A program made the translations under genes and the position numbers. Positions 4,264 to 61,520 of a DNA stretch of 64,000 bases are shown here, piece after piece (the first letter of the stretch is position 1; each line of letters opens with the position of its first letter). The notes under the pieces were generated by a model. That model was not told where the DNA came from and did no database searches. It worked only from the letters and a program-made list of their open reading frames with translations. The DNA comes from Fimbriimonadales bacterium (lineage in GTDB: Bacteria; Armatimonadota; Fimbriimonadia; Fimbriimonadales; ATM1): contig JBGTLG010000041.1 in NCBI GenBank assembly GCA_041744215.1, positions 64,001-128,000 of the forward strand, read 5' to 3'.

Positions 4264-4299
4264 TTCCAGGATCACTGCGTAAGCTTCGACGTCCGCTGG

Positions 4300-4305
4300 T
4301 AACAT
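4300..4305 (+). promoter_or_regulatory. Extended -10 box (TGgTAACAT) 6 nt before the polA ATG; leaderless-type start
   Basis: cTGgTAACATccctccATG with no Shine-Dalgarno. Confidence 0.6.
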
Positions 4306-4311
4306 CCCTCC

Positions 4312-6863: not shown

Positions 6864-8015
6864 TCAGCAAAACCTCGACCTCGCCCACATTCTCGCATCT
6901 GCGTCAGCTTGAAGAATAGCCTCGAGAGATACTTCGGCCTCCGGCAGAGCATCGAACGAGTCTTTGCATAGGTCTTGAATTCGAAGGAACGGAATCTCGT
7001 CACGTAGAAAGGCGTTTGCGGCCTCTTCGTTGACACCATTCAGAAATGTTGGCGCAATCCCACCCAGATTGAAGGCTTTACGGGCGAGGTCTGGGCATAT
7101 GAAGACACGTTCGTCGTACTCCTCAAATGTCAGCGAAGGAGTCATCAACGGGTCCCAAGGATTGGATGGTCCAGAATGCGCATGCGATCCAAACAACGCA
7201 TACTGAATCGGCAGCTTCATGTCGGGATGCCCCATTTGTGCAAGTGAGCTCCCGTCGCGAAACTTTACTATCGAATGAATGACACTCTGAGGATGAACGA
7301 CTACATCCACGCGATCGGGAGGCAGATCGTAAAGCCAACAAGCTTCGATAATCTCAAGCCCTTTATTCATTAGGGTTGCCGAGTCGATCGTGATCTTCCC
7401 GCCCATGTTCCACGTCGGATGTTTGAGCGCCTGTTCTCGAGAGGCATCACGCAGTTGATCATACGACCATCCCCGAAACGGCCCCCCTGACGCCGTCAAA
7501 ATGATTCGATCAACTTCCTCCATGCCCGGATATTCTTTGTTTGCTCCACGAAGACATTGCAAGACTGCCGAGTGCTCGGAGTCGATCGGCATGATGGTGA
7601 CGCCTGCGCTTTTCGCCGCAGGCATGACGATCGATCCACCGGCGACTAATACTTCTTTCGATGCTAACGCGATCTCTTTCTTCGCCGAAATCGCTGCAAG
7701 GGTCGGCTCAAGACCTATCATCCCGCTTACAGCCACCACGACTATGTCGACACCTGGATCGGAGGCAATACCAACCAACCCCTCCATTCCCGTGGGTACT
7801 GGTCGCGACAGGGCCTTAGAAAGCTGCTCGGCTGCGGCAATGTCATACATCGCCAAGCGAGAAACCTTGAACTCGTGCGCCAGAGCGGCGACTCGGGAGT
7901 GATCCGTCTTAGCGGCAAGCGCAACAATGCTGACTTCCGAGGGGTGACGGCGAATCACGTTGATAGTCTGCTCGCCAATGCTGCCCGTACAGCCAAGTAT
8001 CGCGATGCGCTTCAC
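6864..8015 (-). CDS. dxr: 1-deoxy-D-xylulose-5-phosphate reductoisomerase
   Basis: LGCTGSIG, PIDSEHSA, LTASGGPF, HPTWNMGGKITIDSATLMNKGLE. Confidence 0.97.
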   Translation of the reverse strand: MKRIAILGCTGSIGEQTINVIRRHPSEVSIVALAAKTDHSRVAALAHEFKVSRLAMYDIAAAEQLSKALSRPVPTGMEGLVGIASDPGVDIVVVAVSGMIGLEPTLAAISAKKEIALASKEVLVAGGSIVMPAAKSAGVTIMPIDSEHSAVLQCLRGANKEYPGMEEVDRIILTASGGPFRGWSYDQLRDASREQALKHPTWNMGGKITIDSATLMNKGLEIIEACWLYDLPPDRVDVVVHPQSVIHSIVKFRDGSSLAQMGHPDMKLPIQYALFGSHAHSGPSNPWDPLMTPSLTFEEYDERVFICPDLARKAFNLGGIAPTFLNGVNEEAANAFLRDEIPFLRIQDLCKDSFDALPEAEVSLEAILQADADARMWARSRFC

Positions 8016-8019
8016 GAAC

Positions 8020-9144
8020 CTATTCTACGTCCTCTAGCAATGCAGCTGCAATTTTCGCGGTTCTTGTTATCGCATCTCTGGGACCTAACATACGTCTAAT
8101 CTCTTGAAAGTCGTTGAGTTGTTGAGCTCTGACGTCTTCGTTGAATAACACTTCGTATGCGGCGTTGTAAACAGCGTCCGGCGTCACATTCCACATTAGC
8201 AACTCAGTGACAACCTTCTTCTGCATTATTATTGAGGGCATCGCCACGAATTCGAATCTCGGCCTTCGGATGCGTACCTCGGTCTCCAGCAGCTTAGACC
8301 CGCGATAAACAACGACCATCGGGCAGTCGCAGACCGCGCATTCTAGCGCTGCCGTTCCTGAGCAAACTATTGCGGCGGCAGCACGCTTCAGCGTGTGGGG
8401 GGCGGGTTCAGCAGATAGCTCAACCGGCACTCGCGAATGAGCGGACCACATCCGCGATACCTTCTCGGGGTCAGCAGTGGGTGCAACTACGATGGTCGCT
8501 GGAAGAGCCGAGTTTCCAAGTCTCTCAACTGCCTGCGCAATAACTGGGAGATTGAATTCGATCTCATGCAGCCGGCTACCAGGAAGTATCGCGATCCCAG
8601 AGCGGTCCGCTTCCTCAAACTGGTCGCATATCTGCACAATCGGATGACCTACCCATTCCGAGACGCCGCCCATAGAGAGCAGCATCTCATTCGACCATTT
8701 GAACGGAGTCGCTATTCGATCGGCAATCTTTGGTAGATCCACTCCTTGCTTCTGCCTTCTCCAAGAGCCGGGTGGCATAAAGTACAGCGTCTTGGATCCG
8801 ATGCGCTTTGCAATTCGGGACAACCGAATGTTGACGTATCCGAAATCAATCGCTATCACAAGCCTTGGCTTTTGGTGTCGCAACCACCGTGTCACTTTGC
8901 GCATATCCCGGTAGACCCTTGGCACGACTAGCAATGAATGAAAGATTCCGATGGCTCCCCAACTGCTTGAGTCTGCGATGATCTCCGCGCCAGCGCTCCG
9001 CAGTTTTGAGGCGCCAATCGCGTGAAACTCGGCATCCACCCCTAATTGCCTCATTTCGTTTATCAGCGCAGCCCCGACAGCATCGCCGCTCGCCTCACCG
9101 GCCGACAAAAGAACCCGTGGCTTACCGCTGGTCTTGGCGTCCAA
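8020..9144 (-). CDS. lpxB: Lipid-A-disaccharide synthase
   Basis: LSAGEASGD, VGHP, LPGSRLHE, SGT; follows lpxA. Start TTG 9144 or GTG 9156. Confidence 0.92.
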   Translation of the reverse strand: MDAKTSGKPRVLLSAGEASGDAVGAALINEMRQLGVDAEFHAIGASKLRSAGAEIIADSSSWGAIGIFHSLLVVPRVYRDMRKVTRWLRHQKPRLVIAIDFGYVNIRLSRIAKRIGSKTLYFMPPGSWRRQKQGVDLPKIADRIATPFKWSNEMLLSMGGVSEWVGHPIVQICDQFEEADRSGIAILPGSRLHEIEFNLPVIAQAVERLGNSALPATIVVAPTADPEKVSRMWSAHSRVPVELSAEPAPHTLKRAAAAIVCSGTAALECAVCDCPMVVVYRGSKLLETEVRIRRPRFEFVAMPSIIMQKKVVTELLMWNVTPDAVYNAAYEVLFNEDVRAQQLNDFQEIRRMLGPRDAITRTAKIAAALLEDVE

Positions 9145-9910
9145 ATCGGCCACCACCTACGTTTTGCAAGAAGTTGAGCAGGTACTCCACTTCCGGCGTA
9201 ATCTCAACCTCTCGCCGCACCGCCTCAATAGCCCGGGTCATACCCATCTCGGATCGAAAGAGAAGCTTGCACGCCTTGTGGAGCGCGAGCCGGACGGTCT
9301 GTTCAACGCCCATCCTTCGCAAGCCCACTGAGTTGATGTCGTAGACGCGCTGATCTCGCCCTTCTGTCAGCATAAATGGTGGAACATCCCTTGACACTCC
9401 AGACATGCCGCCGACCATCGCGTACTTACCGATCCGAACAAACTGATGAACGCCCGTCATGCCGCCGATGTTGACGCCTTCTTCGACTGTAACGTGTCCG
9501 CTGATTCCCACGTTATTGGCCATTGTAATGTTGTCATGCAAAACAACGTTGTGCCCTAAATGACAGAACGCCATGAGAAAATTGTTGTTGCCGACAACCG
9601 TTTTGTTTCCTTCGCCCGTGGCTCGGTGGACGGTAACGAACTCACGAAAGACGTTGTCGTTCCCGATCTCAAGAAACGTTGGCTCGCCAGAGTACTTTCT
9701 GTCTTGCGGATCACCACCGAGAACGGCGCCGTGCCCCACCACGTTGCGTGCTCCGATCTTCGTCGAGTGCCGAACAATGGCATGCGCCTCAATGATGGAG
9801 TCGTCGCCTATCTGGGCACCGGCTTCGATGACTGTAAACGGCCCTACGATAACACCGTTGCCAAGTGCTGCAGACGGGTCAACTATTGCGGTCGGGTGAA
9901 CCTCTGTCAA
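9122..9910 (-). CDS. lpxA: UDP-GlcNAc O-acyltransferase
   Basis: VHPTAIVDP, GGDPQD, REFVTVHRAT, HLGHN, VHQFVRIG; TTG start at 9910 overlapping the fabZ stop. Confidence 0.95.
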   Translation of the reverse strand: MTEVHPTAIVDPSAALGNGVIVGPFTVIEAGAQIGDDSIIEAHAIVRHSTKIGARNVVGHGAVLGGDPQDRKYSGEPTFLEIGNDNVFREFVTVHRATGEGNKTVVGNNNFLMAFCHLGHNVVLHDNITMANNVGISGHVTVEEGVNIGGMTGVHQFVRIGKYAMVGGMSGVSRDVPPFMLTEGRDQRVYDINSVGLRRMGVEQTVRLALHKACKLLFRSEMGMTRAIEAVRREVEITPEVEYLLNFLQNVGGGRFGRQDQR

Positions 9911-10344
9911 AGCTTTGTTCCATTCGCCAGCACTTTGAAAGCCATCTCGGCTTCGCACACAAGTTCACCATCCACCGTCGCGCGTGCCTTGATTGAGCCA
10001 ACACTGTTTCTGAACCACTGAAGTTCGGCAACGGTTTCCAAACGATCCCCCGGCACCACAGGTCGTCTAAACTTCACTTTGTCCAATCCAGCGATCAACG
10101 GCGTAAACCCCTCATATCGCGGGTCGGCAAGCATCATAACAGCACTGACCTGCGCCATAGACTCAAGAATCAGCACGCCTGGCATGATGGGCATGTTAGG
10201 ATAGTGGCCTTGAAAGAATTGTTCATTGTAAGTCACGTTTTTGTACCCACGAACACTCTTGCCAACCTCGATCTCTTCAATTCGATCAACCAACAGCATC
10301 GGGTAGCGATGCGGCAATAGAGATTGGAGTGATTTGATGTCCAT
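9907..10344 (-). CDS. fabZ: 3-hydroxyacyl-ACP dehydratase
   Basis: LPHRYPMLLVD, FFQGHYP, MPGVLILESMAQ, FRRPVVPGD. Confidence 0.97.
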   Translation of the reverse strand: MDIKSLQSLLPHRYPMLLVDRIEEIEVGKSVRGYKNVTYNEQFFQGHYPNMPIMPGVLILESMAQVSAVMMLADPRYEGFTPLIAGLDKVKFRRPVVPGDRLETVAELQWFRNSVGSIKARATVDGELVCEAEMAFKVLANGTKL

Positions 10345-10347
10345 AGT

Positions 10348-11160
10348 TTAGTCCTCCCAATCACACAACTCTTGAAGTCGTTCGGCCGCACGAAGATTTA
10401 GCTTGTGACCTGACCGCTCCGCCGCGACATTTAGAAATCGAGGCGGGATCCCTGCAAGGTATAAGTCGCCAATGCAATCCAGCAATTTGTGACGAGCAGG
10501 TTCGTCGGGAAACCGAGCGGTTGTGCGATATTCGCTAGAACCGAGCACCAACGTATTAGATTCGTTGCCGCCCCTTCCTAGGCCCATCGACTGAATCACA
10601 GCGATCTCTTCTTCAAAAACAAATGTTTTGGCTGGTGCAATCTCCGACAAGTAGCGTTCCTTATTGATCTCAATCTCAAACTCGACTTTTCCTGGCCACC
10701 GCTCGCCCGAATCAAACTCGTACCGCCACCAACCCTCGCCAACAGATATGCTCATCCGCTGGTCGTCCTCCTGCATGTTGATGCGCCCAAACAAACCCGC
10801 GGCGTACTTCATCCCCAACGACTCAAAACCAGCATCCATTAACCCCTTGGCGAACTCAACTGACGAACCATCGAGAATGGGGATCTCATTGCCCTCGACT
10901 TCGATCTCGGCATCCGTAACTTCAAGTGCTGCCATCGCGCTCATCAGGTGCTCGATAGTGCTAACGGTGCCGAGTCTCGTGCACCGACTTGAATCGGTGA
11001 CGTTCTCTGGCACGGCCTCATACCTCTTGCCACTGTGCAGGAAGGCCAAGTCGCGATCACCACTCCTGACGATGGCCCTACAGCTCTCGCCTGAGTGAAT
11101 TCCTATTCCCTCGAAGACCACATCACGCGCAACTGTCTGCCTGGCGAATTCGATCTTCAC
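10348..11160 (-). CDS. lpxC: UDP-3-O-acyl-GlcNAc deacetylase
   Basis: GIGIHSG, TIEHLMSA, EIPILDGS, HKLLDCIGDL, SGHKLN. Confidence 0.95.
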   Translation of the reverse strand: MKIEFARQTVARDVVFEGIGIHSGESCRAIVRSGDRDLAFLHSGKRYEAVPENVTDSSRCTRLGTVSTIEHLMSAMAALEVTDAEIEVEGNEIPILDGSSVEFAKGLMDAGFESLGMKYAAGLFGRINMQEDDQRMSISVGEGWWRYEFDSGERWPGKVEFEIEINKERYLSEIAPAKTFVFEEEIAVIQSMGLGRGGNESNTLVLGSSEYRTTARFPDEPARHKLLDCIGDLYLAGIPPRFLNVAAERSGHKLNLRAAERLQELCDWED

Positions 11161-12200
11161 TGTTGCTTTCCTCTCAGTTCGGCGATCTCTCTCTCGAGCC
11201 GGCGAATCCGGTCAACAATCTCGGGAAGCTTTGCACCCAACAAAAAAGCGCGCATTGCTCCGCGCGCCTCCTGTGCTGGCGTGCCCCAGTACTCGCCAGG
11301 TTCTTGAATGTTCTGCGCTACGCCGGATCTCGGCCCGAGGACGACGTCGTCTGTCACGCTGGTGTGGTCACTAATCGCCGCTGCGCCGCCCATCGTAACA
11401 CGGGCACCGATGTGAGCGCTTCCGCCGATCCCACATTGTCCGGCTATCACGGTGTCGGAGCCAATCTGAACGTTGTGGGCGACCTGAACTAGATTATCAA
11501 TTTTGGTGCCACTACCGATGCTTGTCTCGCCAGCCGTTCCCCGGTCAACAGCTGTCAAAGCGCCGATTTCACAATCGTCGCCGATTCTGACTCCACCGAC
11601 CTGGGGCACCTTCCGGTGGCGCACGCCATCCCAGAAGTATCCAAATCCATCCGCTCCCAAAGTCGCACCGGAATGGACGATTGACCTGTCACCGATCCAC
11701 ACATCGCGATAGAGCACTACATGCGGGTACAGCTTTGCGCCGCTACCCAATCGGCAGTTCTCGCCGACGTAGCAAAAGGGATAGACACGAACATCTGGGC
11801 CGACGTGAACACCCCCCTCGATGACGGTAAACGGCCCAATTCGTGCAGACCTGTCGATTGAGGCTGCCGGGTCAACCACTGCTGTCGAGTGTATGCCTTC
11901 GCTTAAGGGCAACTCATTCCAGGCGATCGCGAGCAGTCGCCCAAAAGCTTCGCGAGGCGAGCGACAGCGGATGTGGGGTTTTGTGCAGTCTGCCTCGCCC
12001 AATGCGACGATGACCGCGGCAACGCTCGAAGCTTCGGCGGCTGCCATGTACTGAGCAGATTCTGCGAACGTGATGCCGGTCGGGTCATCGTAGCCCGCTG
12101 GGACGGGGCGGCCGATCCTAAGCTCCGATGGACCATGGAGTTCACCACCGACGATTTCGGCGATGTCGGATAGTGTCCAAGTTAGGGATTCCTGAGCCAA
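11157..12200 (-). CDS. lpxD: UDP-3-O-acylglucosamine N-acyltransferase
   Basis: Hexapeptide repeats, GADGFGY, VPQVGGV, KIDNLVQVAHNV. Confidence 0.95.
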   Translation of the reverse strand: MAQESLTWTLSDIAEIVGGELHGPSELRIGRPVPAGYDDPTGITFAESAQYMAAAEASSVAAVIVALGEADCTKPHIRCRSPREAFGRLLAIAWNELPLSEGIHSTAVVDPAASIDRSARIGPFTVIEGGVHVGPDVRVYPFCYVGENCRLGSGAKLYPHVVLYRDVWIGDRSIVHSGATLGADGFGYFWDGVRHRKVPQVGGVRIGDDCEIGALTAVDRGTAGETSIGSGTKIDNLVQVAHNVQIGSDTVIAGQCGIGGSAHIGARVTMGGAAAISDHTSVTDDVVLGPRSGVAQNIQEPGEYWGTPAQEARGAMRAFLLGAKLPEIVDRIRRLEREIAELRGKQQ

Positions 12201-13171
12201 GAAGTGAACTCCGCTGTCTTGTCCGGCCCGAAGTGGGGTCCAGCGGCCAGTTTGTACCCGCGAACCCGAAGAAAAATGTCGAGTTTTGCTGCCAAAACGC
12301 CATTTCTTTGCTCATCACGAATGAAAGTTTGTGATTCGGCCATGCTGGCATCGACCGCTTCAACATGCAGTTCTTCCGGCGGCTGCGGCTCCAGGCTCAG
12401 TCGATTTGAGTCAAGAAGCGGGGGGAGGGCAGCCCTATTGGTCTCTCGGAGTCGATCTCGAACCATCTCGGCCGCACGCGAATCGGCGCGGCTTAGGATC
12501 GCACGGACCTCCGACTCGATGCGCACCCCTTCGCCCAGGTTCAATTCGCGAACCTGCGCAAGAATTGCTTCGATCCGCCGGTCAGTCTCAGCTTCGTCCT
12601 CGCGAATCTTAGCGTGGAGTTCACGTCCCTCGGAGCTCCATTCGCGGAGTAAGCGCGACCTTGACAACTCTTCTTCCGAGTACCCTCTAACAGTCGGCCA
12701 CCCCACCAGTAGCGCAGCTCGAACTATCATTCGCGCGCGATTTGGAGTTCGGTCGCGGACGACCTGCGAGATCTGCTCCATTGCGGCGTCCGCGCGAGCG
12801 CGTATGGCACCCGATAACGATCTCCGAATGGAGTTCACTTCCGCCTCCGCTTCGACGAGGACAACGCGCCGGTAGTTTTCTTCCAATTCGTTTTGAAGTT
12901 CGAGAAACTCCCGCTCCATGAGTGCTAGCGCTCCTTCTCTCCTCCCTTCTGCCGACTCCTTACCGCGCATGCTGGGCGCTACGCCTGGAATGCCGAAACT
13001 CTGGGGGCCAGTTCGATAGTCCTTGCTCGGAACACGAGAAAAGAAGCCGGGCAACTCCACATCGGACGGCACCCGGCTCAAATCAACCCAAACAACTGGT
13101 TCGCGTTTTGCGCAGCCCGAGCAAATCGCAAGGGTGCTAAGGGCTATCGGTATCCATTTGCTTGATCGCAT
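12182..13171 (-). CDS. Putative lipoprotein with an elongated OmpH/Skp-like coiled coil
   Basis: From ATG 13171: MRSSKWIPIALSTLAICSGC (lipobox), VVWVDLSRV, long E/R-rich helices, C-terminal GYKL...DKTAEF; lies between skp and lpxD. Confidence 0.6.
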   Translation of the reverse strand: MRSSKWIPIALSTLAICSGCAKREPVVWVDLSRVPSDVELPGFFSRVPSKDYRTGPQSFGIPGVAPSMRGKESAEGRREGALALMEREFLELQNELEENYRRVVLVEAEAEVNSIRRSLSGAIRARADAAMEQISQVVRDRTPNRARMIVRAALLVGWPTVRGYSEEELSRSRLLREWSSEGRELHAKIREDEAETDRRIEAILAQVRELNLGEGVRIESEVRAILSRADSRAAEMVRDRLRETNRAALPPLLDSNRLSLEPQPPEELHVEAVDASMAESQTFIRDEQRNGVLAAKLDIFLRVRGYKLAAGPHFGPDKTAEFTSWLRNP

Positions 13172-13769
13172 CCTGTGTGATGTCGTTTGCCGAGTAAACG
13201 GCGACGCTCGCCTCGAAAACGAGCGTGAATCCGCCACGTTGCGCTACTTTTTGGGACGCAACTCGCGCCTTTTCTATGACTTCCTGCTGAGACTGTTGAG
13301 CCAGTTGACCCATTTCGCCGCCAAAGTCTTGGTTCCAGTCGCGCGCCATCTCGAGAGCTTCATTCGCCATAGCAGAAAGCTCGTTGGCTCGCTGAAGCTG
13401 TGCTGGCTGAGGGTTCGTTAGCCGCATTAACGTTTCCAATTCGTTCTTCTGACTACGAATTGTGTCCTGTAAACGCTTGAGGTCATCCTGTTGTGCGGCT
13501 GTCGGACTTGCAATCAGCATGAGGTCCTTCAATTGTGATCCTTGTGCCCGCGACAAGACTCGGTTTTCCGATACGAACTGCAGCAGCGCGGTCATCTTGT
13601 TGCGTCGTCCGTCAAACTCTGCTCGCTTCCGCATACCCAGCTTGGAATCCTCAGCGACTTTGCCAAGGTCCACTACTCCGAACTTCATAGTATTGCCCTG
13701 GAACGCGGCTAGCGCTACAAACGCAATCGCAATCCCTATGATAGTCACGATAACTCGGTTTGGTTTCAT
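13137..13769 (-). CDS. skp: OmpH/Skp outer-membrane chaperone
   Basis: Signal peptide, KFGVVDLGKV, coiled coil, GFTLVF...VYSANDITQ; downstream of bamA. Confidence 0.85.
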   Translation of the reverse strand: MKPNRVIVTIIGIAIAFVALAAFQGNTMKFGVVDLGKVAEDSKLGMRKRAEFDGRRNKMTALLQFVSENRVLSRAQGSQLKDLMLIASPTAAQQDDLKRLQDTIRSQKNELETLMRLTNPQPAQLQRANELSAMANEALEMARDWNQDFGGEMGQLAQQSQQEVIEKARVASQKVAQRGGFTLVFEASVAVYSANDITQDAIKQMDTDSP

Positions 13770-13806
13770 ACGTTGTGCTCCTTAGATTGTAGATCGAGCT
13801 TTTGGC

Positions 13807-15591
13807 TCAGAAAGACCCACCGATTAGGAAGTGCGTCTTGGCTTTTCCTTCCTTGTTGATTCCGACATCCAGACGAATTGGCCCGAAAGGTGTTTTGAAA
13901 TTGACTCCAATGCCATAGCCCAAATTCATGTTGAGCTTGTTGCTCTGCGTGAAAGTGCGAATCCCCGGGTACCCGCTCCAGGCGCCTCCCCAATCCACGA
14001 ACCCAATCACATTAAATGCCTTTTGGATTGGATGACGATACTCAAGTTGGAACAAGAGCGCGTGTTTACCCCAGAATCGATCCTCGTCGTAACCGCGAAC
14101 TCCGCCCGATCCACCCACAAAGTATTGCTCGAAGAAGGGGGGCTCACCGACAATCGTCGCTGCAAAGGCCCGAAATGCTAAGACCTTCCGAGGTTCATCA
14201 AATTCTTCAATCGTTCGTGGTTTTTCGCTGCTTGAATAGACACGATAGTCAATCGATGTTCGCAGATACAATCGCTGGCCAAGACTATCGAATCCTACGT
14301 TCTGCCCGCCAACGCTCGTGATGTTGCTGAAGTTAGGCTCAACAGATACTCGTAACCAGTCCCCACGAGCTGGGTCCTGGTTGAAGTCTCGACGATTGCG
14401 CGTGATCCCAAGATTCAAACCTGCTGTAAATCCATCTTGAAACACAAACTCTTCGCCGGGATCGACGACAAAGTCGCGAGTGTTGATGTGCTGTGCCTCA
14501 AAACCGTAGAAGTATCGAGTGATCCGGTCTGCAACGCTTGAAAACATCAAGTTGCCACCAGTCATCCGTTGGGAGAACCTGCCTAATGGCCCGCCCTCGG
14601 ATCCAAAGAGTGAACTGCCAAACACAAGTGTCTCGCGAGAGAATATGCTCGCGTTTAGGGATGTTCGCTTCCGATCAACAAATGGGTCGCCGTAGTCGAG
14701 AGTGATGCTTGTGCCCAATCCTTGTGCAGACTGCAGAAGATTTACGCCGACCGATTTACCCGTCCCATTGAAGTTGCTGTCGTTTAGCGTGAACAGGCCC
14801 GCAAGGCGGTTCTTCGGGTCAAGTTGTAGACCCACGTTGAAGCTGCCTGTCCTTGTTTCTTTTAGATCAATCTTGACGACTACCTTCCCGAGCGAGTCTT
14901 CTGAGTCGATTACGTCTGGTCGAATCTCCTCAAACCACCGCGTGTCTGCGAGTCGCTTGAGGTCTTCTTGTAACTGTGTGAAGTTGAGGATCTGATTTTC
15001 TTCAGTGTCTATCGCTCGGCGAACGACTCCTGGCCGGGTTCTCGTCAGTCCCGTGATCTCGACTCTCTCGATGCTGGCCTCAGTCACCGTAACCTTGAGG
15101 ATTGAAGGATCTTCCATCAACGGCTCGTATTCAGTAACCCGGGCGAAGTAGCCCTGCCTTCGGTACAACTCGGAAACGCCGCGAGCATCCTGCTCAAGCA
15201 CGTTCGGATTGAAAACCTGTCCCACCCTGTTCCTTAGGGCGCCTGTGATCATCTCTGTGGGAACGACAGTATTCCCTTCGACTCGAATCGCGGTGATCAC
15301 CTCCCATTCAACTACTTCGACAACGACTCTCCAACGTCCATTGTCCAGAAGTTGACCATAAACCTTGACATCCTGAAACTGATTTGTGTTCTCAAGAGCT
15401 TGCTTGTCGCGAGCTAGCTGCGTGGGTTGATAAACTTGTCCCACCTTGCTCCCAATGATGTTGACTATCAGCGCTTCGGATACGGCCTTGTTGCCGCGCA
15501 CGACAACCTCACCAATCAGTTCGTTGCCCTGGCTGATCGCTGGGGTAGTGGCAGAAAGCAAAATGAAGAGGCAAATGAGTGGTCTGGTCAA
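13807..15591 (-). CDS. bamA: BamA/Omp85 outer-membrane assembly factor (about 3 POTRA domains)
   Basis: Signal peptide, POTRA repeats, NFNGTG, VRGY, FKTPFGPIRLD, C-terminal Phe. Confidence 0.92.
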   Translation of the reverse strand: MTRPLICLFILLSATTPAISQGNELIGEVVVRGNKAVSEALIVNIIGSKVGQVYQPTQLARDKQALENTNQFQDVKVYGQLLDNGRWRVVVEVVEWEVITAIRVEGNTVVPTEMITGALRNRVGQVFNPNVLEQDARGVSELYRRQGYFARVTEYEPLMEDPSILKVTVTEASIERVEITGLTRTRPGVVRRAIDTEENQILNFTQLQEDLKRLADTRWFEEIRPDVIDSEDSLGKVVVKIDLKETRTGSFNVGLQLDPKNRLAGLFTLNDSNFNGTGKSVGVNLLQSAQGLGTSITLDYGDPFVDRKRTSLNASIFSRETLVFGSSLFGSEGGPLGRFSQRMTGGNLMFSSVADRITRYFYGFEAQHINTRDFVVDPGEEFVFQDGFTAGLNLGITRNRRDFNQDPARGDWLRVSVEPNFSNITSVGGQNVGFDSLGQRLYLRTSIDYRVYSSSEKPRTIEEFDEPRKVLAFRAFAATIVGEPPFFEQYFVGGSGGVRGYDEDRFWGKHALLFQLEYRHPIQKAFNVIGFVDWGGAWSGYPGIRTFTQSNKLNMNLGYGIGVNFKTPFGPIRLDVGINKEGKAKTHFLIGGSF

Positions 15592-15607
15592 CGGTTCCTC
15601 CGAAGCG

Positions 15608-16144
15608 TCATGTTTTCAAATATGGAGCAAGGCGCTGGCGCAGCTGCTGGCGCGCACGCGCCAGGCGACTACGAACCGCCTCAACGGTGATATCCATCGA
15701 TTGGGCGATTTCTTCATAGGATAGCCCCTCGATGTCGCGCAATACTACGCACTCGCGGTAGCCGAGGGGCAAACTTTCGATCGCCTCGGTCAAATGAGTC
15801 CTCAATTCCGAGATCTCGGCCGACCTCTCTGGATCTGCCGTTCGATCTGGCAAGTCCATCGTTTCCTCGCCGTCCCCAGACTCGAGGGGTTGTTCGCGAT
15901 CGCGCCTTCGCCCGACCTTGGCGAGACGATCCTTGTTCAAGTTGATTAGAATTCGGTACAGCCATGTGTAAGCTTGCGACTCTTTCCTAAACTTTCCCCA
16001 GGCACGGAACGCCCGCAGGAACGTATCTTGGACGAGTTCTGCCGCCTCATCTGGGTTCGATGTCAGGCGCAAAGCGACGCCATAAAGCCGCCGCTCGAAG
16101 AGGGAGACAAGTTTCTCAAATTCCCTCTCGTGGCTGCCTAGCAT
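15608..16144 (-). CDS. ECF (sigma-24-like) RNA polymerase sigma factor
   Basis: AAELVQDTFLRAF, YTWLYRILIN, LRDIEGLSYEEIA, VRSRLARAR; ATG 16144 preceded by SD AAGGAGG. Confidence 0.92.
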   Translation of the reverse strand: MLGSHEREFEKLVSLFERRLYGVALRLTSNPDEAAELVQDTFLRAFRAWGKFRKESQAYTWLYRILINLNKDRLAKVGRRRDREQPLESGDGEETMDLPDRTADPERSAEISELRTHLTEAIESLPLGYRECVVLRDIEGLSYEEIAQSMDITVEAVRSRLARARQQLRQRLAPYLKT

Positions 16145-16169
16145 GGTCGCCTCCTTGCGTCCTGGTGCG

Positions 16170-16197
16170 TTAGACCTTGCTCCATTGGATTCGTTTC
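16170..16197 (-). promoter_or_regulatory. Candidate ECF-type promoter GAAAC-N17-GTCTAA
   Basis: Lies in the short gap between the tamB stop and the sigma SD; AAC -35 and GTC/TCTAA -10 are typical of ECF promoters. Confidence 0.55.
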
Positions 16198-16211
16198 GCG
16201 AGACCGGGACC

Positions 16212-19200
16212 TTAGAACCGACCGGAGTATCCGAGAGAGGCCCTCCAGAGTCCTTCTCCATCTATGCCGAAAGCCAGGTTTAGACGATTCAGAAGCGAAC
16301 CGCGCAGGGGTGGACGATAGATTATCTGAATCAATTCGATTGCACGAGTCCTCGGAGATTCGTCAATTGGCCGACGGTATTCCAGCGTGAAACCATTTCC
16401 GATCGACTTGCCAAGCGTGACAACTCCGCTTGCTCCCTGGCTGAAATCGATGAACACGTAATCCAATCCGAAGGATCGCTCGATGCCCTGCGTCAGCGGC
16501 GCGAGAATGTTCGGAGCTGCCAGGCTCAGAATATCCCTCAACTGCGCTTCAAAGTTCCCCGAGATCGCCCCGCCGATCGATTCGAATAGTTGTCGCTGGC
16601 CGAGAATCGCGAAGATCTGATCGCGTGACAGGTCGGGGGGGTCTGAATTGGCTTCGATTCGCAACTCGTCCCGTGAAAGAACATCACCTGAAACGTTTAG
16701 GTTAATCGTGTATCTTTGAATATTAAGGCCATTGAAAGCGGTTGCCCTGGTGGTCGCGTCAAAATCAACCTGGAGCGTTGGCAATGTCTGACCGGTGAAG
16801 TCGGCACCATACTTGAAATGCGCGACCCCACCCTGCTCGATGCCTATGCGATGCGTAGGCAAAGAGATCGCGCCAGACTGAATCGTGAACAGCATATCAG
16901 CCAGCGGATTCGAAAGGCTGCCCAATAGAAAACCGGTCGCATCAACTTCGGCACGCAACACACCGCTCCGAAATGATCCGTTGTTTATTCGAATCGCGCG
17001 AATTGCGAAGTTGGGATCGATTGGCAACACACCGGTGCCTTCACCCGAAGGCACATCACCATCTAAAACAAGCGAGGCATTGTCGATTGAGATAACCGCG
17101 TGGTCGCTTCCAATTGTTGGCGTTAGCAATGACCCCGAAACATTAACCCCTGTTGTCGAGACTACCGCGCGCAACACATTGCCATCACCGAATCGTTGAG
17201 AGATCGGTAGTGCCGTAAGATTCAACTCTGTTTCCGACGTGAACGCATCCGCGATCACGTCGTATCCGCCCCTAACGAAAAACTCGCCACCATTGACCGT
17301 TGAGCCGCTCACGTCGAGACCTATGATATGGCCAGACTGCAATCGCAGTTCAGCGCTTGGAACGACTAGAACAGTGTCCATGCCGTTAAACTTGAGTCGC
17401 TCCGCGTTAGCCGAGAGAGTGCCATCTACACGCCACTCGGCTTTAGTCCCTGACACAGTCAGGGATCCGCCGGTAAACGTGCCACGCGTCTCCTCCGTAT
17501 CGAGTCCCCCGAAAAAGCGGGAAAGCGCGTTCAGGTCACGGGACGGAACATCGATGAGAGCGAAGATGGACTCCCCATCGGGGACCTCAAATGGATACCG
17601 GAAGGGAACTCGTGCTTCGATCAACCTTGCCTCGAGCCCCCTCACTCCAAGCTGGCCGCCGTCGGCGACGATTTCCCCATCCGAAATCGATATGCGATCA
17701 ATAGCGAAAGCGTCAACGGAGTACTGATCAAAGGCCAAGTCACGGCCATTCACCGATGCGATGATGTCTGGCGAACTGGTCTTGCCGAACACCAGAAACG
17801 GAACCTGTACCACGCCACGAATACCTGCTAGCTCGGGCCAAAGATTCGGGAGCCAATCAAGATCAATTCTTGAAAACTCCCCGTCGAGCTGTAGGTCGCC
17901 CAATTCTTCAATGAAGTTGTCACGGTCTTTGTTCAGCGCAAACCGAACGGGACCTCCTTCGAGAGATGCACGCTCGATGGTCCACTTTCCGTCCTGCCGA
18001 TCTGCGCTCACATCTAAAACTCCGAGATCGAGAGATCGAAACTTGATGTCCGAAACAGTCAGTGCAATCGCGGTTCGCCACTCTTCGAGCGTTCCACCAA
18101 AGTGTGCGATGGCAGTAACTGACGCTTCCGTTTCCGCGATCATCTCCCTCAGGGCTGGCGGGGCGAGGTCCAGCAGTTCGTCGCTAAAAGCTCGGTACAA
18201 CGGAACGGTCGAAAAGCGGAGCATTGAAATCGATCCCGAAATGTCCTTTGTCGACCAATCCACTGACGCATCTTCTGCAACAATGAATCCGTCAAGACTG
18301 CCAATCGCGCCATTGACAAGTATCCGAGTGTCTTCCAGTGTCACTTCTAAGTCGCCAGAACCGACAGGAACGCCGTCAAGCTCGATATCTTCAGCACGAA
18401 TTGAGACTTGCCCACTCGTCGGCACAGCGTCCAAAAATGTCAGCGCACCGGTGAGGTCGATCGTCCCGGTCATCGATGTGTTGGGGCCGATGTAAGAACG
18501 CAGGCTCTCTGCAGGCAGATTTGCACCCGAAAACGCGATCACACTTTCGCCGTGCAACGCCACCGTTCCCGATGCGCTGAACTTTCCGTCCCCGACCATA
18601 GCTGTGAGTTCCTCCAGATGAACTGCGCCGGCTCGCCATTCGAAACGCGCACCAAGCGAGTTGGCGGTAATGAGGTCAATGAGCGCATTGGTTGCGCTCA
18701 GCTCGGCGCGGACGATTGGATCACCCAGCGTGCCGGATGCGGACCAACTTCCGGATGCGAGGCCATAGATCCGTGAATTCGGAAAGTAGTAAAGCACGGA
18801 TGCGTCGTTGACAAGCCCTCTTCCCGATAGCAGGCCCCCAGAAACTAAGCTCAACTCAATCTCTCCGGTCAACTGGCCGACCCCCGCACGTATGTCGATG
18901 CCTCTAGCAAACAACGTGTCGTCAGCTACCCGCAATGAGGCGGCAGAAAACGGGAGCGAATATCCATTGATGAAAGCATCGTAGACTTCGGCGTCAGCCT
19001 CAGCGATTGGTTTTTGGAGACTGCCTTTGATTGACCCTTGTGCAAAGACTGTGCCTGATGCAGGCGAGGATGGGAACAGGCCAAGCGAAACCGAAAAGGC
19101 CTCGAACTTAAAGTCAAGAGATTCGTCGTGAAGTCCGAAGAAGCCACTCGCGCGAACTGAGCCGCTGGGTCCTGCCAGCTCAACTATCTTGAAATCAAAT

Positions 19201-20693
19201 CGTCCGTCCGAAAAAGCCGCGCGCGAACGGACGTCGACAGTCTCAACAACAGATTCTTGGTCGTCTTCCAATAGTAAGTCGGCGGTCCCTTCAAGATTCA
19301 CGGTCGCACTGACATCAGCGAGGGGGCCTTCTATCAGTGCGTTGACGTTCACCCTGCCGCCAAGTACGTACACTCGCGGCAAGTTTGGTACGCGGTCAAG
19401 GCTAATCCCTGATGCGGAAAGAGAGCCGCGAATCGTCGGCTCCTCAGTCAGTACAAGCGCGAAGTCTCCAGTTGCAGCCGAGCCGTACAAGTTGCCAGTT
19501 GTATTTGTAAACAACAGTGTAGTTCCATCTGTGACGAAGTTTGACGCCACATCGCTCGCTGTGTAATCTGAAAGAGATACGGACGCTGCGACCAGGTTGC
19601 CAGCGACGGCTACCCGGCGGCCGTACTCGACGTCGCCTTCGAATCGCGCCCGCGAAAACCGCAAGTCAGCCGGAAGCATCGGCTCGCTAACTAGCCTTCG
19701 GACCGCTGCGTCCGAGTCCGCCCACGCGCTGCCAGACAATCGAATAGCGAATCCATCGGCCCAGCCAATACTGCCCGTCGCGTTCGCCATTGCGCCCGTT
19801 GCGACCGCTTCGAAGTCACCCGACATCCCGCGCTCAGTCGCATAACCGTCAAACCTCGCGCGATGCACCGACCGTCCAAACAACACGAGGGAGCTTGCGG
19901 TGGCAACGCCGCGGGCATCCAGGCGCACTTGCTCGTCGAAGGCTATGTTGACAACGCCACTGAATTGACCGGAAACAATGCTCCAATCCTTGAGCCACTC
20001 GCTCTCGCGAAACTCTGGAGATGCATCCAGATAACGGCGCACTCTGCCTAACTGGAAGCTTGGCGTATCAATCGTCGCATCTTTAAGCACTCCGTCCAGA
20101 TACGATGCACTTGCGACGAGCCGCCCCGCATCCTCGATGAACCCGCTCAAGTAAAGAGTCCAGTTCTCACCGACGCCTTCTACGCGAATCTTCTCAAAGT
20201 CGCCAACCCAATCGCCTACAGGGCCTACTGAGCGATCGGAAAGATAAACGCGAGTCTTTGAAACGTTGACGACAAACGGAAGCGCCTCGACTTCTTCGTC
20301 TGGGGGAGTTGGGAGCAGCCGCTCGAAACTCCACAGCCCGCCCTCGTCTCTCGACAGCCGCACTTCTCCACCTTCAGCATCAACGTGAACGACCTTGCCA
20401 ATCCAGGGCAGAGGCGGGATAACTCTTATCCTCTCTGCAGCAAGTATCCGCTTCCCTTCAGGGTCAAACGCCTCAACACCCTCTGCAGAGATCCAAGTAA
20501 GTGTGTCGCCAACTTCAACGTGACGGGCGAGGATTGTGACCGTACCGCCGCTGGCCTCGTAGGTTAATCTGACGTTGCGATAAGGTCCTTGGAGCGCGTC
20601 GATATACCGGTTAATGTACGCCGCAGCCCATATCGACAGCGCGAGCGTTGGAAGGGTGAACGCGATGGCGAAGATCTCTCGAGATACCCGAAT
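16212..20693 (-). CDS. tamB: TamB/AsmA-like bridge protein (about 1493 aa, probable ATT start)
   Basis: Beta-taco-type repeats and a TamB-like C-terminus (SDPPDLSRDQIFAILG). The frame stays open 110 codons above the ORF-track GTG and encodes an N-terminal TM anchor. Confidence 0.82.
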   Translation of the reverse strand: MRVSREIFAIAFTLPTLALSIWAAAYINRYIDALQGPYRNVRLTYEASGGTVTILARHVEVGDTLTWISAEGVEAFDPEGKRILAAERIRVIPPLPWIGKVVHVDAEGGEVRLSRDEGGLWSFERLLPTPPDEEVEALPFVVNVSKTRVYLSDRSVGPVGDWVGDFEKIRVEGVGENWTLYLSGFIEDAGRLVASASYLDGVLKDATIDTPSFQLGRVRRYLDASPEFRESEWLKDWSIVSGQFSGVVNIAFDEQVRLDARGVATASSLVLFGRSVHRARFDGYATERGMSGDFEAVATGAMANATGSIGWADGFAIRLSGSAWADSDAAVRRLVSEPMLPADLRFSRARFEGDVEYGRRVAVAGNLVAASVSLSDYTASDVASNFVTDGTTLLFTNTTGNLYGSAATGDFALVLTEEPTIRGSLSASGISLDRVPNLPRVYVLGGRVNVNALIEGPLADVSATVNLEGTADLLLEDDQESVVETVDVRSRAAFSDGRFDFKIVELAGPSGSVRASGFFGLHDESLDFKFEAFSVSLGLFPSSPASGTVFAQGSIKGSLQKPIAEADAEVYDAFINGYSLPFSAASLRVADDTLFARGIDIRAGVGQLTGEIELSLVSGGLLSGRGLVNDASVLYYFPNSRIYGLASGSWSASGTLGDPIVRAELSATNALIDLITANSLGARFEWRAGAVHLEELTAMVGDGKFSASGTVALHGESVIAFSGANLPAESLRSYIGPNTSMTGTIDLTGALTFLDAVPTSGQVSIRAEDIELDGVPVGSGDLEVTLEDTRILVNGAIGSLDGFIVAEDASVDWSTKDISGSISMLRFSTVPLYRAFSDELLDLAPPALREMIAETEASVTAIAHFGGTLEEWRTAIALTVSDIKFRSLDLGVLDVSADRQDGKWTIERASLEGGPVRFALNKDRDNFIEELGDLQLDGEFSRIDLDWLPNLWPELAGIRGVVQVPFLVFGKTSSPDIIASVNGRDLAFDQYSVDAFAIDRISISDGEIVADGGQLGVRGLEARLIEARVPFRYPFEVPDGESIFALIDVPSRDLNALSRFFGGLDTEETRGTFTGGSLTVSGTKAEWRVDGTLSANAERLKFNGMDTVLVVPSAELRLQSGHIIGLDVSGSTVNGGEFFVRGGYDVIADAFTSETELNLTALPISQRFGDGNVLRAVVSTTGVNVSGSLLTPTIGSDHAVISIDNASLVLDGDVPSGEGTGVLPIDPNFAIRAIRINNGSFRSGVLRAEVDATGFLLGSLSNPLADMLFTIQSGAISLPTHRIGIEQGGVAHFKYGADFTGQTLPTLQVDFDATTRATAFNGLNIQRYTINLNVSGDVLSRDELRIEANSDPPDLSRDQIFAILGQRQLFESIGGAISGNFEAQLRDILSLAAPNILAPLTQGIERSFGLDYVFIDFSQGASGVVTLGKSIGNGFTLEYRRPIDESPRTRAIELIQIIYRPPLRGSLLNRLNLAFGIDGEGLWRASLGYSGRF

Positions 20694-20697
20694 GGTG

Positions 20698-21582
20698 TCA
20701 GCCTCCTGCGGCGGCGAGCCGCTCGGCCATCACTTTCTTGCTGAACTCAATTGCGTTGTACGAACTTCGAACGAAGGGACCGCTCGCAACGAACGCAAAT
20801 CCCATATCTTCGCCAAGCTTTTGGTAGTGCTCAAACTTTGACGGGTGTACGAATGTGTTTACAGGCAAATGGCGCATGGTCGGGCGCAGATACTGTCCGA
20901 TTGTGACTGCGTCGACGTCTACAGCGCGCAAGTCCTTCAGCGCTTGAACAACCTCTTCTTCCGTTTCGCCCAACCCGAGCATGATGCCTGACTTAGTGTA
21001 AATCGAAGCATCAAGTTCTTTCACCATCCTCAGCACCTGAAGTGAGCGGTCATACTTTGCTTGCGGCCTTACTATCGTGGAGAGCCTGCGGACTGTTTCG
21101 AGATTGTGATTAAAGATTTCGGGCTTCGCGTCCGTCACGATCTTGATACACCACCGCTTCGCTTTGAAGTCCGGTGTGAGCACTTCGACAATCGCGTGCG
21201 GTTGGGCTTTGTGAAGTGCTCGAATCGTCTCAGCGAACTGACCGGCTCCCTCGTCCGCTAGGTCGTCCCTGGCAACACTCGTCACAACGACGTGCTTCAA
21301 CCCCAACTCCGCCGAAACCTCTGCCACATTCTGTGGCTCGTATGCATCCACCTCAAGCGGCTTGCCGACCTTAATCGCACAAAAGCCACAGGCCCGTGTA
21401 CAGGTATCGCCCAAAATCATGAACGTTGCGGTCTTCTTCGACCAGCACTCGGGAAGGTTCGGACAGCGGGCACTTTCGCAGACCGTGTGGAGGCGGGCTT
21501 TCCGCATCATTTCCCGGACCTCGTTGATCGTGTCAGGGCGGGGAAGCCGGATGGTCAGCCATTCTGGCAGACGTTGAACCAT
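20698..21582 (-). CDS. lipA: Lipoyl synthase
   Basis: CESARCPNLPEC (CX4CX5C), CTRACGFC (radical SAM), RSSY. Confidence 0.97.
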   Translation of the reverse strand: MVQRLPEWLTIRLPRPDTINEVREMMRKARLHTVCESARCPNLPECWSKKTATFMILGDTCTRACGFCAIKVGKPLEVDAYEPQNVAEVSAELGLKHVVVTSVARDDLADEGAGQFAETIRALHKAQPHAIVEVLTPDFKAKRWCIKIVTDAKPEIFNHNLETVRRLSTIVRPQAKYDRSLQVLRMVKELDASIYTKSGIMLGLGETEEEVVQALKDLRAVDVDAVTIGQYLRPTMRHLPVNTFVHPSKFEHYQKLGEDMGFAFVASGPFVRSSYNAIEFSKKVMAERLAAAGG

Positions 21583-21626: not shown

Positions 21627-21785
21627 GTGACCGCCCGAAAGAGACCTCGCCAGCCGTTTCCTTGGGGGCTTTGGGTGCTCGCTATCCTCACGTTTGCGGC
21701 GGCATACCTATTCTTTGGGCTTCCTCACCAGCTTGGCAAAAGAGAGATGAAAACAGAGTTTTTCCAATCGGAGCCCAGACGTTGA
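21627..21785 (+). CDS. Unannotated 52-aa single-pass membrane protein
   Basis: MTARKRPRQPFPWGLWVLAILTFAAAYLFFGLPHQLGKREMKTEFFQSEPRR*; basic N-terminus then a TM helix; its TGA overlaps the ychF TTG. Confidence 0.7.
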   Translation: MTARKRPRQPFPWGLWVLAILTFAAAYLFFGLPHQLGKREMKTEFFQSEPRR

Positions 21786-47898: not shown

Positions 47899-48564
47899 CT
47901 ACCCTACCAAGTACAACATTGGGAACAGGAAAATCCAAACCAGGTCTACGAAGTGCCAGTAGAGGCCGGCGAGCTCAATCGGAATGTAGTCCGTCACCTG
48001 ATTGCGCATGCGATACACACGCACCGCAAGCCACGCCATGATCAAGATTCCAATGAGCACGTGTAAGCCGTGCAGCCCGGTCATCACGAAATACAAGCCG
48101 AAGAAGATTTGCGCGCCTCCGGCATCGACGCCTTCTACGTTGAACTGGAAGTCTCCGCCAGGCCAAAGATGATGTTCGAACTTCGAGCTGTACTCGACGT
48201 ACTTCACGGCCATAAACCCAAACGCAAGCACGCAAGTGGCGATCAGCCAACCGATCGTCGCTCGCCACCGATTCATAATCGAGGCGCGCACTCCGAGCGC
48301 CATCGTCAATGAGCTTGTGAGCAGGATCGTGGTGTTGAGCGCGCCCAGCGTCCAATCCAACTTGTGGTGGGCCGCCACGAACGCGTCGAGATACATGTGG
48401 CGATAGACGATGAACGCAGTAAACAGCCCCCCAAAGAACAGGAGCTCCTGAGCCAAGAACACCCACATGCCGAGGGAGTAGGACTTGAACTGCTGGTCCT
48501 CATCCTCAAACTGGTGTGCGACTGGGAGGTGCGTGTCGCTGACGTGAGCGTCAGACATGCTCAT
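47899..48564 (-). CDS. coxC: Cytochrome c oxidase subunit III (short form)
   Basis: [41 protein letters not shown]. Confidence 0.93.
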
Positions 48565-50194
48565 ACTCCTTTTCCTCTTCGCGCAGCTCTGGCGTGTAGT
48601 GATACGCCTCCTCTGTCACAACCGGCTTGGTAGCAAAATTCTCTGTGGGAGGCGGCGATGGCGTCTGCCATTCCAGACCTTTCGCACCCCAGGGGTTGGC
48701 GGAAGCCTTGTCGCCGTACCACAGCGACCAAATCAGGTAGCCGATGGTCAAGATAAAGCCCGAAGCAAGGATGGATGCGCCCGCGGAAGACAAGACGTGC
48801 AAGACTTGCCACTCTTCCGGATAGCTGTGATATCTGCGCGGCATGCCCATGTATCCAAGAATAAACTGAGGCATAAACGTCAGGTTAAAGCCGATGAAAG
48901 TCACGAGCGCGGACAGCTTGCCCATTCCCTCTGGATACATGCGGCCAGTCATTTTCGGCCACCAGAAGTGGATGCCCGCAAGGAATGCGATGATTTGGCC
49001 GCCGACCATCACATAGTGGAAGTGGGCCACTACGAAATAGGTGTCGTGGAGGTGAATGTCCATCGCCATCGAGGCCAAGAAGAGTCCAGTGAGTCCTCCT
49101 ATTGTAAACAGGCCCATGAAAGACAATGCAAACAGCATTGGCGCTGCCAAATGGATGGAGCCCTTGTACAGCGTCGCCGTCCAATTGAAGATCTTGATCG
49201 CAGAAGGGATGGCGACGAGGAAGGTAATCACAGAGAACACCATTCCCGCATACATTGACTGACCGCTTACGAACATATGGTGGCCCCAGACGAAGAAGCC
49301 AAGGACAGCGATAGCCAAGCTGGAGTACGCAACAAAGTCGTAGCCAAAAATCCGTCGGCGCGCGAAGCAAGCGATCACTTCGCTGATGACTCCCATGCCC
49401 GGCAAGATCATGATGTAGACCGCAGGGTGAGAATAGAACCAAAACAGATGTTGGAAGAGCACCGGATCGCCGCCCAAGTTCGGGTCAAAAATCCCGATCT
49501 TTGCGACTCGCTCCACTCCGACAAGGAACAGCGTGATAGCGATTACTGGCGTTCCCAAGACCTGAATGAGACTCGTGGCGTAGTGCGCCCAAACGAAGAG
49601 AGGTAAACGCGACCACGTTAATCCTGGCGCGCGCATCATGTGAATGGTCACGATAAAGTTCACGCCAGTCATGATCGACGAGAACCCCGCAACAAAAGCT
49701 GCGGAAACGGCCAGAACCACAGCGCCATGTGCAAAGGTTGAGCTTAGCGGCGTGTAAAACGTCCAGCCAGTATCGACGCCTCCCGATACCAGCGCAATCG
49801 TGCCGAGGACCGCGCCAGCCATGAAGACGTACCAACTGAGCAAGTTAAGCCGAGGGAACGCAACGTCCTTTGCGCCTAACATCAGTGGCAGCAAGAAGTT
49901 GCCGAGCACGGCTGGGATCGACGGTATCAAGAAGAAGAAGATCAACGTGACGCCGTGCATCGTAAACGTCTTGTTGTAAGTGTCCGACAACAGGAAGTCG
50001 CCTTGGGGCGTCAATAGTTCATAACGAATCAGCAACGCCATCGACCCACCGATGAGGAAGAAGATCAGGATCGCGATGAGATACAACAGCCCAATTCGCT
50101 TGTGGTCAAGCGTTATCAACCACGACTTAAGGCTGTAGTCGCAGTTGAGGTAATTCACCGATCCTCGCTGCTCAATTGAAGTAGTTGCGCTCAT
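48551..50194 (-). CDS. coxA: Cytochrome c oxidase subunit I, type A2
   Basis: [19 protein letters not shown] (YS motif), WGHHM, VVAHFHY, GMPRRY. Confidence 0.97.
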
Positions 50195-50197
50195 GGA

Positions 50198-51196: not shown

Positions 51197-51208
51197 TGGA
51201 TCGACACC

Positions 51209-54907: not shown

Positions 54908-54909
54908 AG

Positions 54910-61512: not shown

Positions 61513-61520
61513 TAGACTTC

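Follow-up and report, generated by a model that had tools for sequence, protein, structure and literature searches.

Introduction

The AUU start codon of Escherichia coli pcnB, the gene for poly(A) polymerase I, was reportedly found by Binns and Masters in 2002 to keep expression low, and we know of no coupling of that gene to an upstream stop codon. A protein of a very different kind, the TamB-type protein, is thought to bridge two membranes. Here we analyze a 64,000-nucleotide stretch of the genome of a soil-type Fimbriimonadales bacterium (contig JBGTLG010000041.1 of assembly GCA_041744215.1, positions 64,001 to 128,000; hereafter the window), in which a gene for a large TamB-like protein lies directly downstream of the lipoyl synthase gene lipA and lacks a canonical start codon (ATG, GTG or TTG) ahead of its predicted membrane anchor. 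From comparative sequence analysis, we propose, with a probability of about 0.78, that this gene initiates at an AUU codon at position 20693, driven by a Shine-Dalgarno (SD) sequence, with a weak AUU-class codon and probable coupling to lipA.

According to the available text of PMC5499595, AUU, AUC and AUA are occasional start codons in bacteria, and the AUU/AUC start of infC is the target of autoregulation by initiation factor 3 (IF3); work cited there puts AUA, AUU and AUC at 5-7.5% of the AUG output in one construct. For the infC junction, UAA-GGU-AUU with an SD, the accessible portion of another report (PMC3592434) gives twice the output of a single-cistron AUU and one quarter of that of the AUG version, and ascribes this output to roughly equal re-initiation and de novo initiation. 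Excess IF3 lowers re-initiation, as stated in the accessible part of PMC2268962. Among TamB orthologs, BB0794 of Borrelia burgdorferi is described in the available part of PMC5582053 as adjoining bamA-skp, not tamA, and as interacting with BamA.

The junction of lipA and the TamB-like gene

The junction consists of the following features:

16212..20693, minus strand: TamB-like gene as proposed, with its ATT start at 20693, 1,493 codons, and stop codon at 16214-16212
20361..20363, minus strand: GTG, the first canonical in-frame start, preceded by an SD-like GGTGGAG (-7.1 kcal/mol)
20613..20675, minus strand: predicted N-terminal membrane anchor IFAIAFTLPTLALSIWAAAYI, residues 7-27 counted from the ATT, identified by hydropathy
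20691..20693, minus strand: proposed initiation codon ATT (AUU), with no other near-cognate codon from the in-frame TGA to the hydrophobic segment
20698..20700, minus strand: lipA stop codon TGA, 4 nt upstream of the ATT and in another frame
20698..21582, minus strand: lipA (lipoyl synthase), the upstream gene; NCBIfam lipoyl synthase E 1.6e-124, Pfam Radical_SAM and LIAS_N
20702..20707, minus strand: SD AGGAGG, separated from the ATT by an 8-nt spacer (ctgacacc)
20730..20732, minus strand: in-frame TGA that closes the TamB-like frame upstream, as read from the sequence

A preliminary description of the window had the frame open from the TGA at 20732-20730 with no canonical start until GTG 20363, and all of these coordinates are right: codons 20729..20364 include no ATG, GTG or TTG, and GTG 20363 is the first. 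A gene caller would choose this GTG and thereby report a 1,383-amino acid product without the anchor. The AGGAGG that the same description placed 8 nt before the in-frame ATT is likewise seen in the sequence; it is contributed by the final sense codons of lipA (GCA GGA GGC, then TGA), with the lipA C-terminus reading ...A-A-G-G-TGA and the junction as a whole TGA-CACC-ATT. The earlier assertion that a membrane anchor is encoded upstream of GTG 20363 was borne out as well. The peptide IRVSREIFAIAFTLPTLALSIWAAAYI is encoded in this stretch, and the 21-residue anchor core has a mean Kyte-Doolittle hydropathy of 1.9 and aligns with that of relatives, invariant proline included. Translation from the ATT gives I-R-V-S-R-E followed by IFAIAFTLPTLALSIWAAAYI, and, by hydropathy alone, a protein starting there is predicted to carry a single hydrophobic N-terminal segment after a charged tail.

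In-frame ATG, GTG or TTG codons occur within the TamB-like open reading frame (ORF) at a rate of 5.0% (69 in 1,383 codons), and at this rate a run of 110 codons without a canonical start has p ~0.004. Among the 55 non-overlapping long ORFs of the window, the TamB-like ORF has the longest start-less open stretch (122 codons, followed by 88 and 70). The point that we regard as decisive is the homology of the upstream stretch with the N-termini of relatives. A word-based protein search of 7,999 scored candidates recovered two relatives (P0003 and P0004), both of 1,501 amino acids and 50-52% identical, and the 110 codons upstream of GTG 20363 align with their N-termini at 44-45% identity. In protein comparisons, relatives of ~1,500 amino acids span the TamB-like product end to end.

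These alignments bear directly on the possibility that the true start is GTG 20363, in which case the protein would be anchorless, with 1,383 amino acids, and the upstream stretch would be untranslated. The SD-like sequence ahead of this GTG is compatible with such a start, and stop-free stretches are not rare at 55% G+C. Nevertheless, we consider it distinctly unlikely, given that the 110 upstream codons align not just with P0003 and P0004 but with all relatives, that purifying selection acts from the ATT-class codon onward in closely related pairs (see below), that the canonical starts of relatives stand before the anchor, and that E. coli TamB is described as inner-membrane-anchored in the available text of PMC12045153.

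The SD of the proposed ATT start is predicted to form a duplex of -10.5 kcal/mol with the general bacterial anti-SD; few SDs of the window are as strong, the median of the best values there being -6.4. Counting both strands, the 64 kb contain 32 copies of AGGAGG. Initiation at another nearby non-canonical codon, or at several codons, would be conceivable because in-frame ATC codons (20675 and 20666) lie 6 and 9 codons downstream of the ATT, where the anchor starts, and because in one related locus (L053) the better SD serves the second of two ATC codons, so that the exact codon can shift between species. We judge this alternative unlikely: the SDs of the two downstream ATC codons are weak (-3.9 and -3.0 vs -10.5), a start at either would remove the charged tail before the anchor, and the conserved alignment column corresponds to the first isoleucine, followed by arginine or lysine.

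Start codons across the TamB-like family

An exhaustive search with the first 600 residues of the protein found 94 relatives at E <=1e-3, 68 at 1e-10 and 14 at 1e-30. A first scan of genome contigs with the three closest proteins, in a collection without the genomes of the window, P0003 and P0004, gave 322 pattern matches and no relative. A second contig scan, with a 31-row alignment, yielded 57 loci, nearly all from metagenome-assembled genomes (MAGs) labeled Fimbriimonadales, Fimbriimonadaceae or Armatimonadota. Excluded were 10 loci in which the match stopped short of the N-terminus (L006, L007, L015, L024, L036, L045, L046, L048, L055 and L056), one at a contig edge (L002) and one near-duplicate of L047 (L049), leaving a survey set of 46 N-termini, namely, the window and 45 loci. 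For each of these, the frame was walked back to the preceding stop, the anchor was located by hydropathy, and all candidate starts before the anchor were listed. Two of the recovered loci, L043 and L049, belong to records whose titles name archaeal MAGs (an “uncultured archaeon” and a bin of Methanoregulaceae) and carry Fimbriimonadaceae-type TamB-like genes, and the N-terminal protein sequence of L049 is that of L047; both contigs look mis-binned.

In 19 of the 46 N-termini (window, L001, L005, L008, L009, L017, L018, L019, L020, L021, L023, L025, L031, L035, L037, L038, L040, L052 and L053), no ATG, GTG or TTG precedes the anchor. The best candidate in these is ATT (9), ATC (7) or ATA (3), collectively ATH. 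An in-frame stop lies one codon upstream of the ATH in L008, L009, L035 and L037, which leaves no room for any other start in these four. In an alignment of 22 N-termini, the ATH codons of 17 sequences (the window and 16 loci) share a column with the ATG of L039; this column sits 14-15 residues before the invariant proline, and the next residue is arginine or lysine in nearly all. Checking the start codons of orthologs, as had been suggested, thus favors the ATT start. L034 was classed as canonical solely through an SD-less TTG five codons upstream, although its ATC has an SD of -11.3 and groups with those of its ATH sisters.

The closest relative in the genome set, L001 (protein 55% identical), has the same A-A-G-G-TGA lipA end, the same AGGAGG, the same 8-nt spacer and the same ATT, with an in-frame TAG 6 codons upstream of the ATT and no canonical codon before the anchor. 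This identical junction nearly excludes a read error or a private ATG-to-ATT mutation. An error of sequencing or assembly, or an ATG that mutated very recently in this one genome, would require a single base change, and the closest protein relatives are predicted to have methionine starts, though elsewhere; the sequence comparison nevertheless makes it very unlikely, because not only L001 but also L005, L008 and L009 of the same clade carry ATH codons (ATT, ATA and ATC, respectively), and the 19 N-termini without a canonical start are spread across the order.

Neighboring genes in the same loci served as controls. For lipA, all 35 rows that align from the N-terminus have a canonical start there or close by (3 rows that do not were left out); the same holds for 29 of 29 rows of the gene for the outer membrane protein Omp85 (13 left out) and for 2 of 2 rows of a sigma factor gene (10 left out). 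Because the neighbors start canonically, the oddity belongs to the TamB-like gene and not to the genomes or assemblies.

Selection, SD strength and phylogeny

Protein-level constraint begins at the ATH codon. Over the first 27 codons from the ATH, the proportion of synonymous differences (pS) is well above that of non-synonymous differences (pN) in close pairs, with third-position changes dominating:

L018/L028: pS 0.65, pN 0.09
L034/L037: pS 0.80, pN 0.15
L035/L037: pS 0.80, pN 0.19

In the 45 nt upstream of the ATH, 8-13 of the 15 sites differ in each phase in such pairs, and this region thus carries no coding signal. The very close pair L023/L040 (pS 0.14, pN 0.10) is uninformative. In the window and L001, conservation upstream of the ATH reflects lipA, which occupies this region.

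Of the 19 ATH starts, 12 have an anti-SD duplex at least as strong as -9 kcal/mol; among the 3,372 in-frame ATH codons in the interior of these genes, the share is 3.0% (binomial tail ~6e-9, with relatedness ignored). The median SD of the ATH group is -9.3, against -3.6 for the best canonical candidate of the other 27 N-termini, with a Mann-Whitney p of 8e-7 that is not corrected for relatedness and is not to be taken as independent evidence. These observations suggest that a strong SD compensates for an ATH start.

A FastTree phylogeny of the 46 proteins was built with the tail and the anchor left out; the tree is unrooted, and hence no direction of change is given. The window, L001, L008, L005 and L009 form a clade in which all five members have ATH, with end branches of 0.4-1.2 changes per site, and in a second clade 8 of 9 members do. 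The ATH label changes 9 times on the tree, of which 6 changes are forced by well-supported branches, compared to a mean of 14.9 for shuffled labels. This distribution indicates that the ATH state is long-lived within clades, with several switches between ATH and canonical starts.

Evidence weighing against the ATT start

Several observations count against initiation at ATT 20693. A gap of 112 codons without a canonical start is also present inside the same ORF, so that the missing start by itself is weak evidence. All duplex energies were computed with the general bacterial anti-SD, which was assumed; the window holds no 16S rRNA gene. The trait is not universal, with canonical candidates in 27 of the 46 orthologs, and SD matches are weak, from -4.0 to -8.0, in 7 of the 19 ATH cases. 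When relatedness is taken into account, the link between ATH and a strong SD is not significant in an underpowered comparison of 6 independent pairs (median p 0.25), of which 3.0 went the same way, 0.1 the opposite way and 2.9 showed no difference.

Further, the predicted start of P0003 and P0004 is an ATG that precedes the aligned isoleucine by 8 codons, indicating that a canonical start is present in at least part of the near clade. The window encodes Q-E-A-D-T just upstream of the ATT (20694-20711), which resembles Q-E-D-D-V of P0003 and P0004, and this likeness could hint at coding farther upstream. There is no start codon in the Q-E-A-D-T stretch, whose bases also make up the lipA end and the SD. 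Since a string containing AGGAGG can specify Q-E with D or A as the next residue, P0003 and P0004 might share the layout of SD, 8 nt and isoleucine codon.

Probable coupling to lipA and a possible mechanism

Coupling of the ATT start to lipA, as put forward in the preliminary description, fits the layout in the clade of the window and does not extend to the family. All five members of this clade have 3-4 nt between the lipA stop and the ATH, the junctions being TGA-CACC-ATT in the window and L001, TAG-AGCC-ATT in L005, TAG-CGT-ATA in L008 and TAA-ACC-ATC in L009. The lipA alignment ends ~55-100 nt short of the ATH in other ATH clades, and coupling is thus not required for an ATH start as such. 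Initiation at the ATT is probably coupled to lipA termination in the clade of the window only.

The abutting genes could also raise the possibility that LipA and the TamB-like protein are joined by frameshifting or stop codon read-through, with no separate start, all the more so as the lipA stop of L008 and L009 is in the TamB-like frame, one codon before the ATH. This is next to impossible in our assessment. The ~55-100 nt gap in the other ATH clades speaks against a fusion, and a cytoplasmic radical-SAM enzyme ahead of a signal anchor makes little sense. We rejected the fusion because the frame relation varies between close relatives, the lipA stop being out of the TamB-like frame in the window, L001 and L005 and in frame in L008 and L009.

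Other signals at the junction were sought as well. Folding of the 119 nt around the start was no better than that of shuffled sequences (z +1.23). An Rfam scan of the window gave no matches and a tRNA scan no genes, so that no riboswitch or leader accounts for the junction. A consensus scan of the junction found no terminator-like site between lipA and the TamB-like gene. Upstream of lipA, a scan for consensus promoters found one site, against 0.6 expected:

21710..21739, minus strand: promoter-like site upstream of lipA, from the consensus scan only

Under initiation at AUU 20693, the AGGAGG inside the last lipA codons, with its 8-nt spacer, would place the 30S subunit on the AUU. The initiator tRNA would read this codon, such that the protein is predicted to begin Met-Arg-Val-Ser-Arg-Glu, followed by the membrane anchor. 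Ribosomes ending lipA translation 4 nt upstream would probably keep the site unfolded and may re-initiate, as at E. coli thrS-infC. Compared with the products of the co-transcribed genes, this very large envelope-spanning protein would then be made in low and fixed amounts. Thus, we infer that the AUU is the codon actually used; by analogy with the known AUU starts, a low, fixed ratio of TamB-like protein to LipA and sensitivity of this start to IF3 would be expected to follow.

A more far-reaching and doubtful proposal is that the AUU-class start is a long-maintained regulatory device in Fimbriimonadales, which would tie synthesis of the TamB-like protein to the translation fidelity state (IF3, ppGpp, temperature). 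Under this proposal, the TamB-like bridge for outer-membrane biogenesis would head the bamA-skp-lpx cluster and the strong SD would be a co-evolved compensator, in a manner likened to infC sensing IF3.

Family identity and gene neighborhood

The name tamB, under which the gene was originally described, can be kept at the family level and does not come from the window protein itself, which has no Pfam or NCBIfam match, even at E up to 1. Its relatives P0003, P0004 and P0008 (30-52% identity) match Pfam PF04357 TamB (DUF490) with E of 7e-11 to 2e-13 and, weakly, YhdP, AsmA and DUF748, and the 31-row family profile A3, of which the window protein is the first row, matches the solved TamB structure 9xdc_B (E 3.8e-13). 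Hence “TamB-like” appears to be a fair label for family membership, as distinct from orthology to E. coli TamB. The length of 1,493 amino acids, together with the weak AsmA, YhdP and DUF748 matches of relatives, is only suggestive of a long beta-rich groove fold.

The minus strand from 6867 to 21582 carries, in order, lipA, the TamB-like gene, an extracytoplasmic function (ECF) sigma factor gene, the Omp85/BamA-like gene, OmpH/Skp, a 353-codon ORF, LpxD, LpxC, LpxA, LpxB and Dxr, which from predicted gene content is an outer-membrane biogenesis cluster. The members not listed above that call for comment are:

13807..15591, minus strand: Omp85/BamA-like gene, downstream of the TamB-like gene; Pfam POTRA and Omp85, NCBIfam BamA 3e-55, below the curated cut-off
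15608..16261, minus strand: ECF sigma factor gene, between the TamB-like and Omp85 genes; Pfam Sigma70_r2/r4
12185-13243, minus strand: 353-codon ORF between OmpH/Skp and LpxD, with no family assigned

The Omp85/BamA-like protein is likely the outer-membrane partner of the TamB-like protein, as judged from domain content and gene position. In most of the 57 loci, lipA is directly upstream and an Omp85 gene downstream of the TamB-like gene. A matching sigma factor gene, flanked by the TamB-like gene on one side and Omp85 on the other, was found by tblastn in L001-L012 only (12 of 57 loci), and the nine sigma-bearing loci placed on the tree all fall in the 10-row clade of the window. The start of the sigma gene is ambiguous: the longest ORF (ATG 16261, SD -1.7) overlaps the 3′ end of the TamB-like gene by 50 nt, an ATG 39 codons downstream (~16144) has an SD of -10.4, and the Pfam domains begin near residue 46-51.

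Elsewhere in the window, just two other ATH codons, ATC 48603 and ATT 41552, have an SD of -8 or stronger before the first canonical start. Both were rejected as further ATH starts, the spacer being merely 3 nt in each, and their SD-like motifs are probably due to chance. ATC 48603 (minus strand) precedes a COX3-like gene and ATT 41552 (minus strand) a GAF-PAS histidine kinase gene. An 88-codon upstream open stretch without a canonical start precedes a glutaminase-A-like gene (2260-4569, minus strand; ATG 4305); it would overlap a divergent polA-like gene starting at 4312 and is probably non-coding. The window also carries an unrelated respiratory cluster (47902-59481 and 60449-63525, minus strand) with genes for cytochrome c oxidase subunits I, II and III, SCO1/SenC, parts of alternative complex III (ActD, an NrfD-like protein and a 4Fe-4S protein) and a DUF420 protein.

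Annotation and significance

The expectation that gene callers would mis-annotate such starts is matched by public data. We applied the hydropathy rule for the anchor to 85 public representative proteins of at least 1,300 amino acids from the P0005-P0098 set: 44 have the tail and the full anchor, 22 start within ~3 residues of the anchor or inside it, and 19 lack the full anchor, some of the latter (for example, P0098, P0095 and P0053) being borderline. P0005, which is 47% identical to the N-terminal 600 residues of the window protein, starts mid-anchor. N-terminal clipping thus seems to affect about half (41 of 85) of the public predictions in the family, in what looks like systematic mis-annotation. 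Standard gene callers cannot find ATH starts, and clipped anchors would mislead predictions of topology, localization and structure.

In the literature covered, which did not extend to subscription journals, we found no report of a non-canonical start in TamB/AsmA-like genes or in Armatimonadota. AUU-class initiation is a rarity already known from infC and pcnB; the conserved TamB-like example is new and unusually well replicated. Across deep divergence, the TamB-like family treats ATT, ATC and ATA as interchangeable with ATG, in most cases together with a strong SD, and thus offers a natural series for the study of how weak start codons are tolerated, compensated and selected. If the output is indeed low and fixed, one transcript would deliver very different amounts of LipA, the TamB-like bridge and BamA. 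Should the proposed regulatory device turn out to be real, the conserved AUH-initiated genes of bacteria would gain a third well-defined family, the first with a link to the envelope.

Comparison with known systems

Like E. coli TamB, the window protein is large, is predicted to carry an N-terminal anchor and has a likely Omp85 partner encoded close by; a TamB-type C-terminal region is seen at the level of the family, in relatives and the profile. The annotated ATG of E. coli K-12 tamB overlaps the tamA stop as ATGA and, therefore, a tight junction with the upstream gene is a shared feature as well. However, E. coli tamB has a canonical ATG and follows tamA, whereas the gene described here follows lipA, precedes the ECF sigma factor and BamA-like genes, and is proposed to start at ATT. 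The arrangement around Borrelia BB0794 is similar in that TamB-like, sigma, BamA-like and OmpH/Skp genes follow one another in the window; it differs in that the Borrelia genes are in separate transcription units, and the available part of that report mentions no unusual start codon (PMC5582053).

With pcnB, the TamB-like gene has in common the non-canonical AUU and, if the proposed reading holds, low output would be common to both. The comparison with infC cuts both ways. The TamB-like product is an envelope protein and not a start-codon proofreading factor, and no autoregulatory loop is evident; moreover, the TamB-like family shows ATT, ATC and ATA, with canonical candidates in ~60% of the orthologs. 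Like infC of E. coli and many bacteria, as far as the accounts available for that gene extend, the TamB-like gene combines an AUU-class start conserved across species with an SD and an upstream stop codon, that of thrS in the case of infC, 3-4 nt away.

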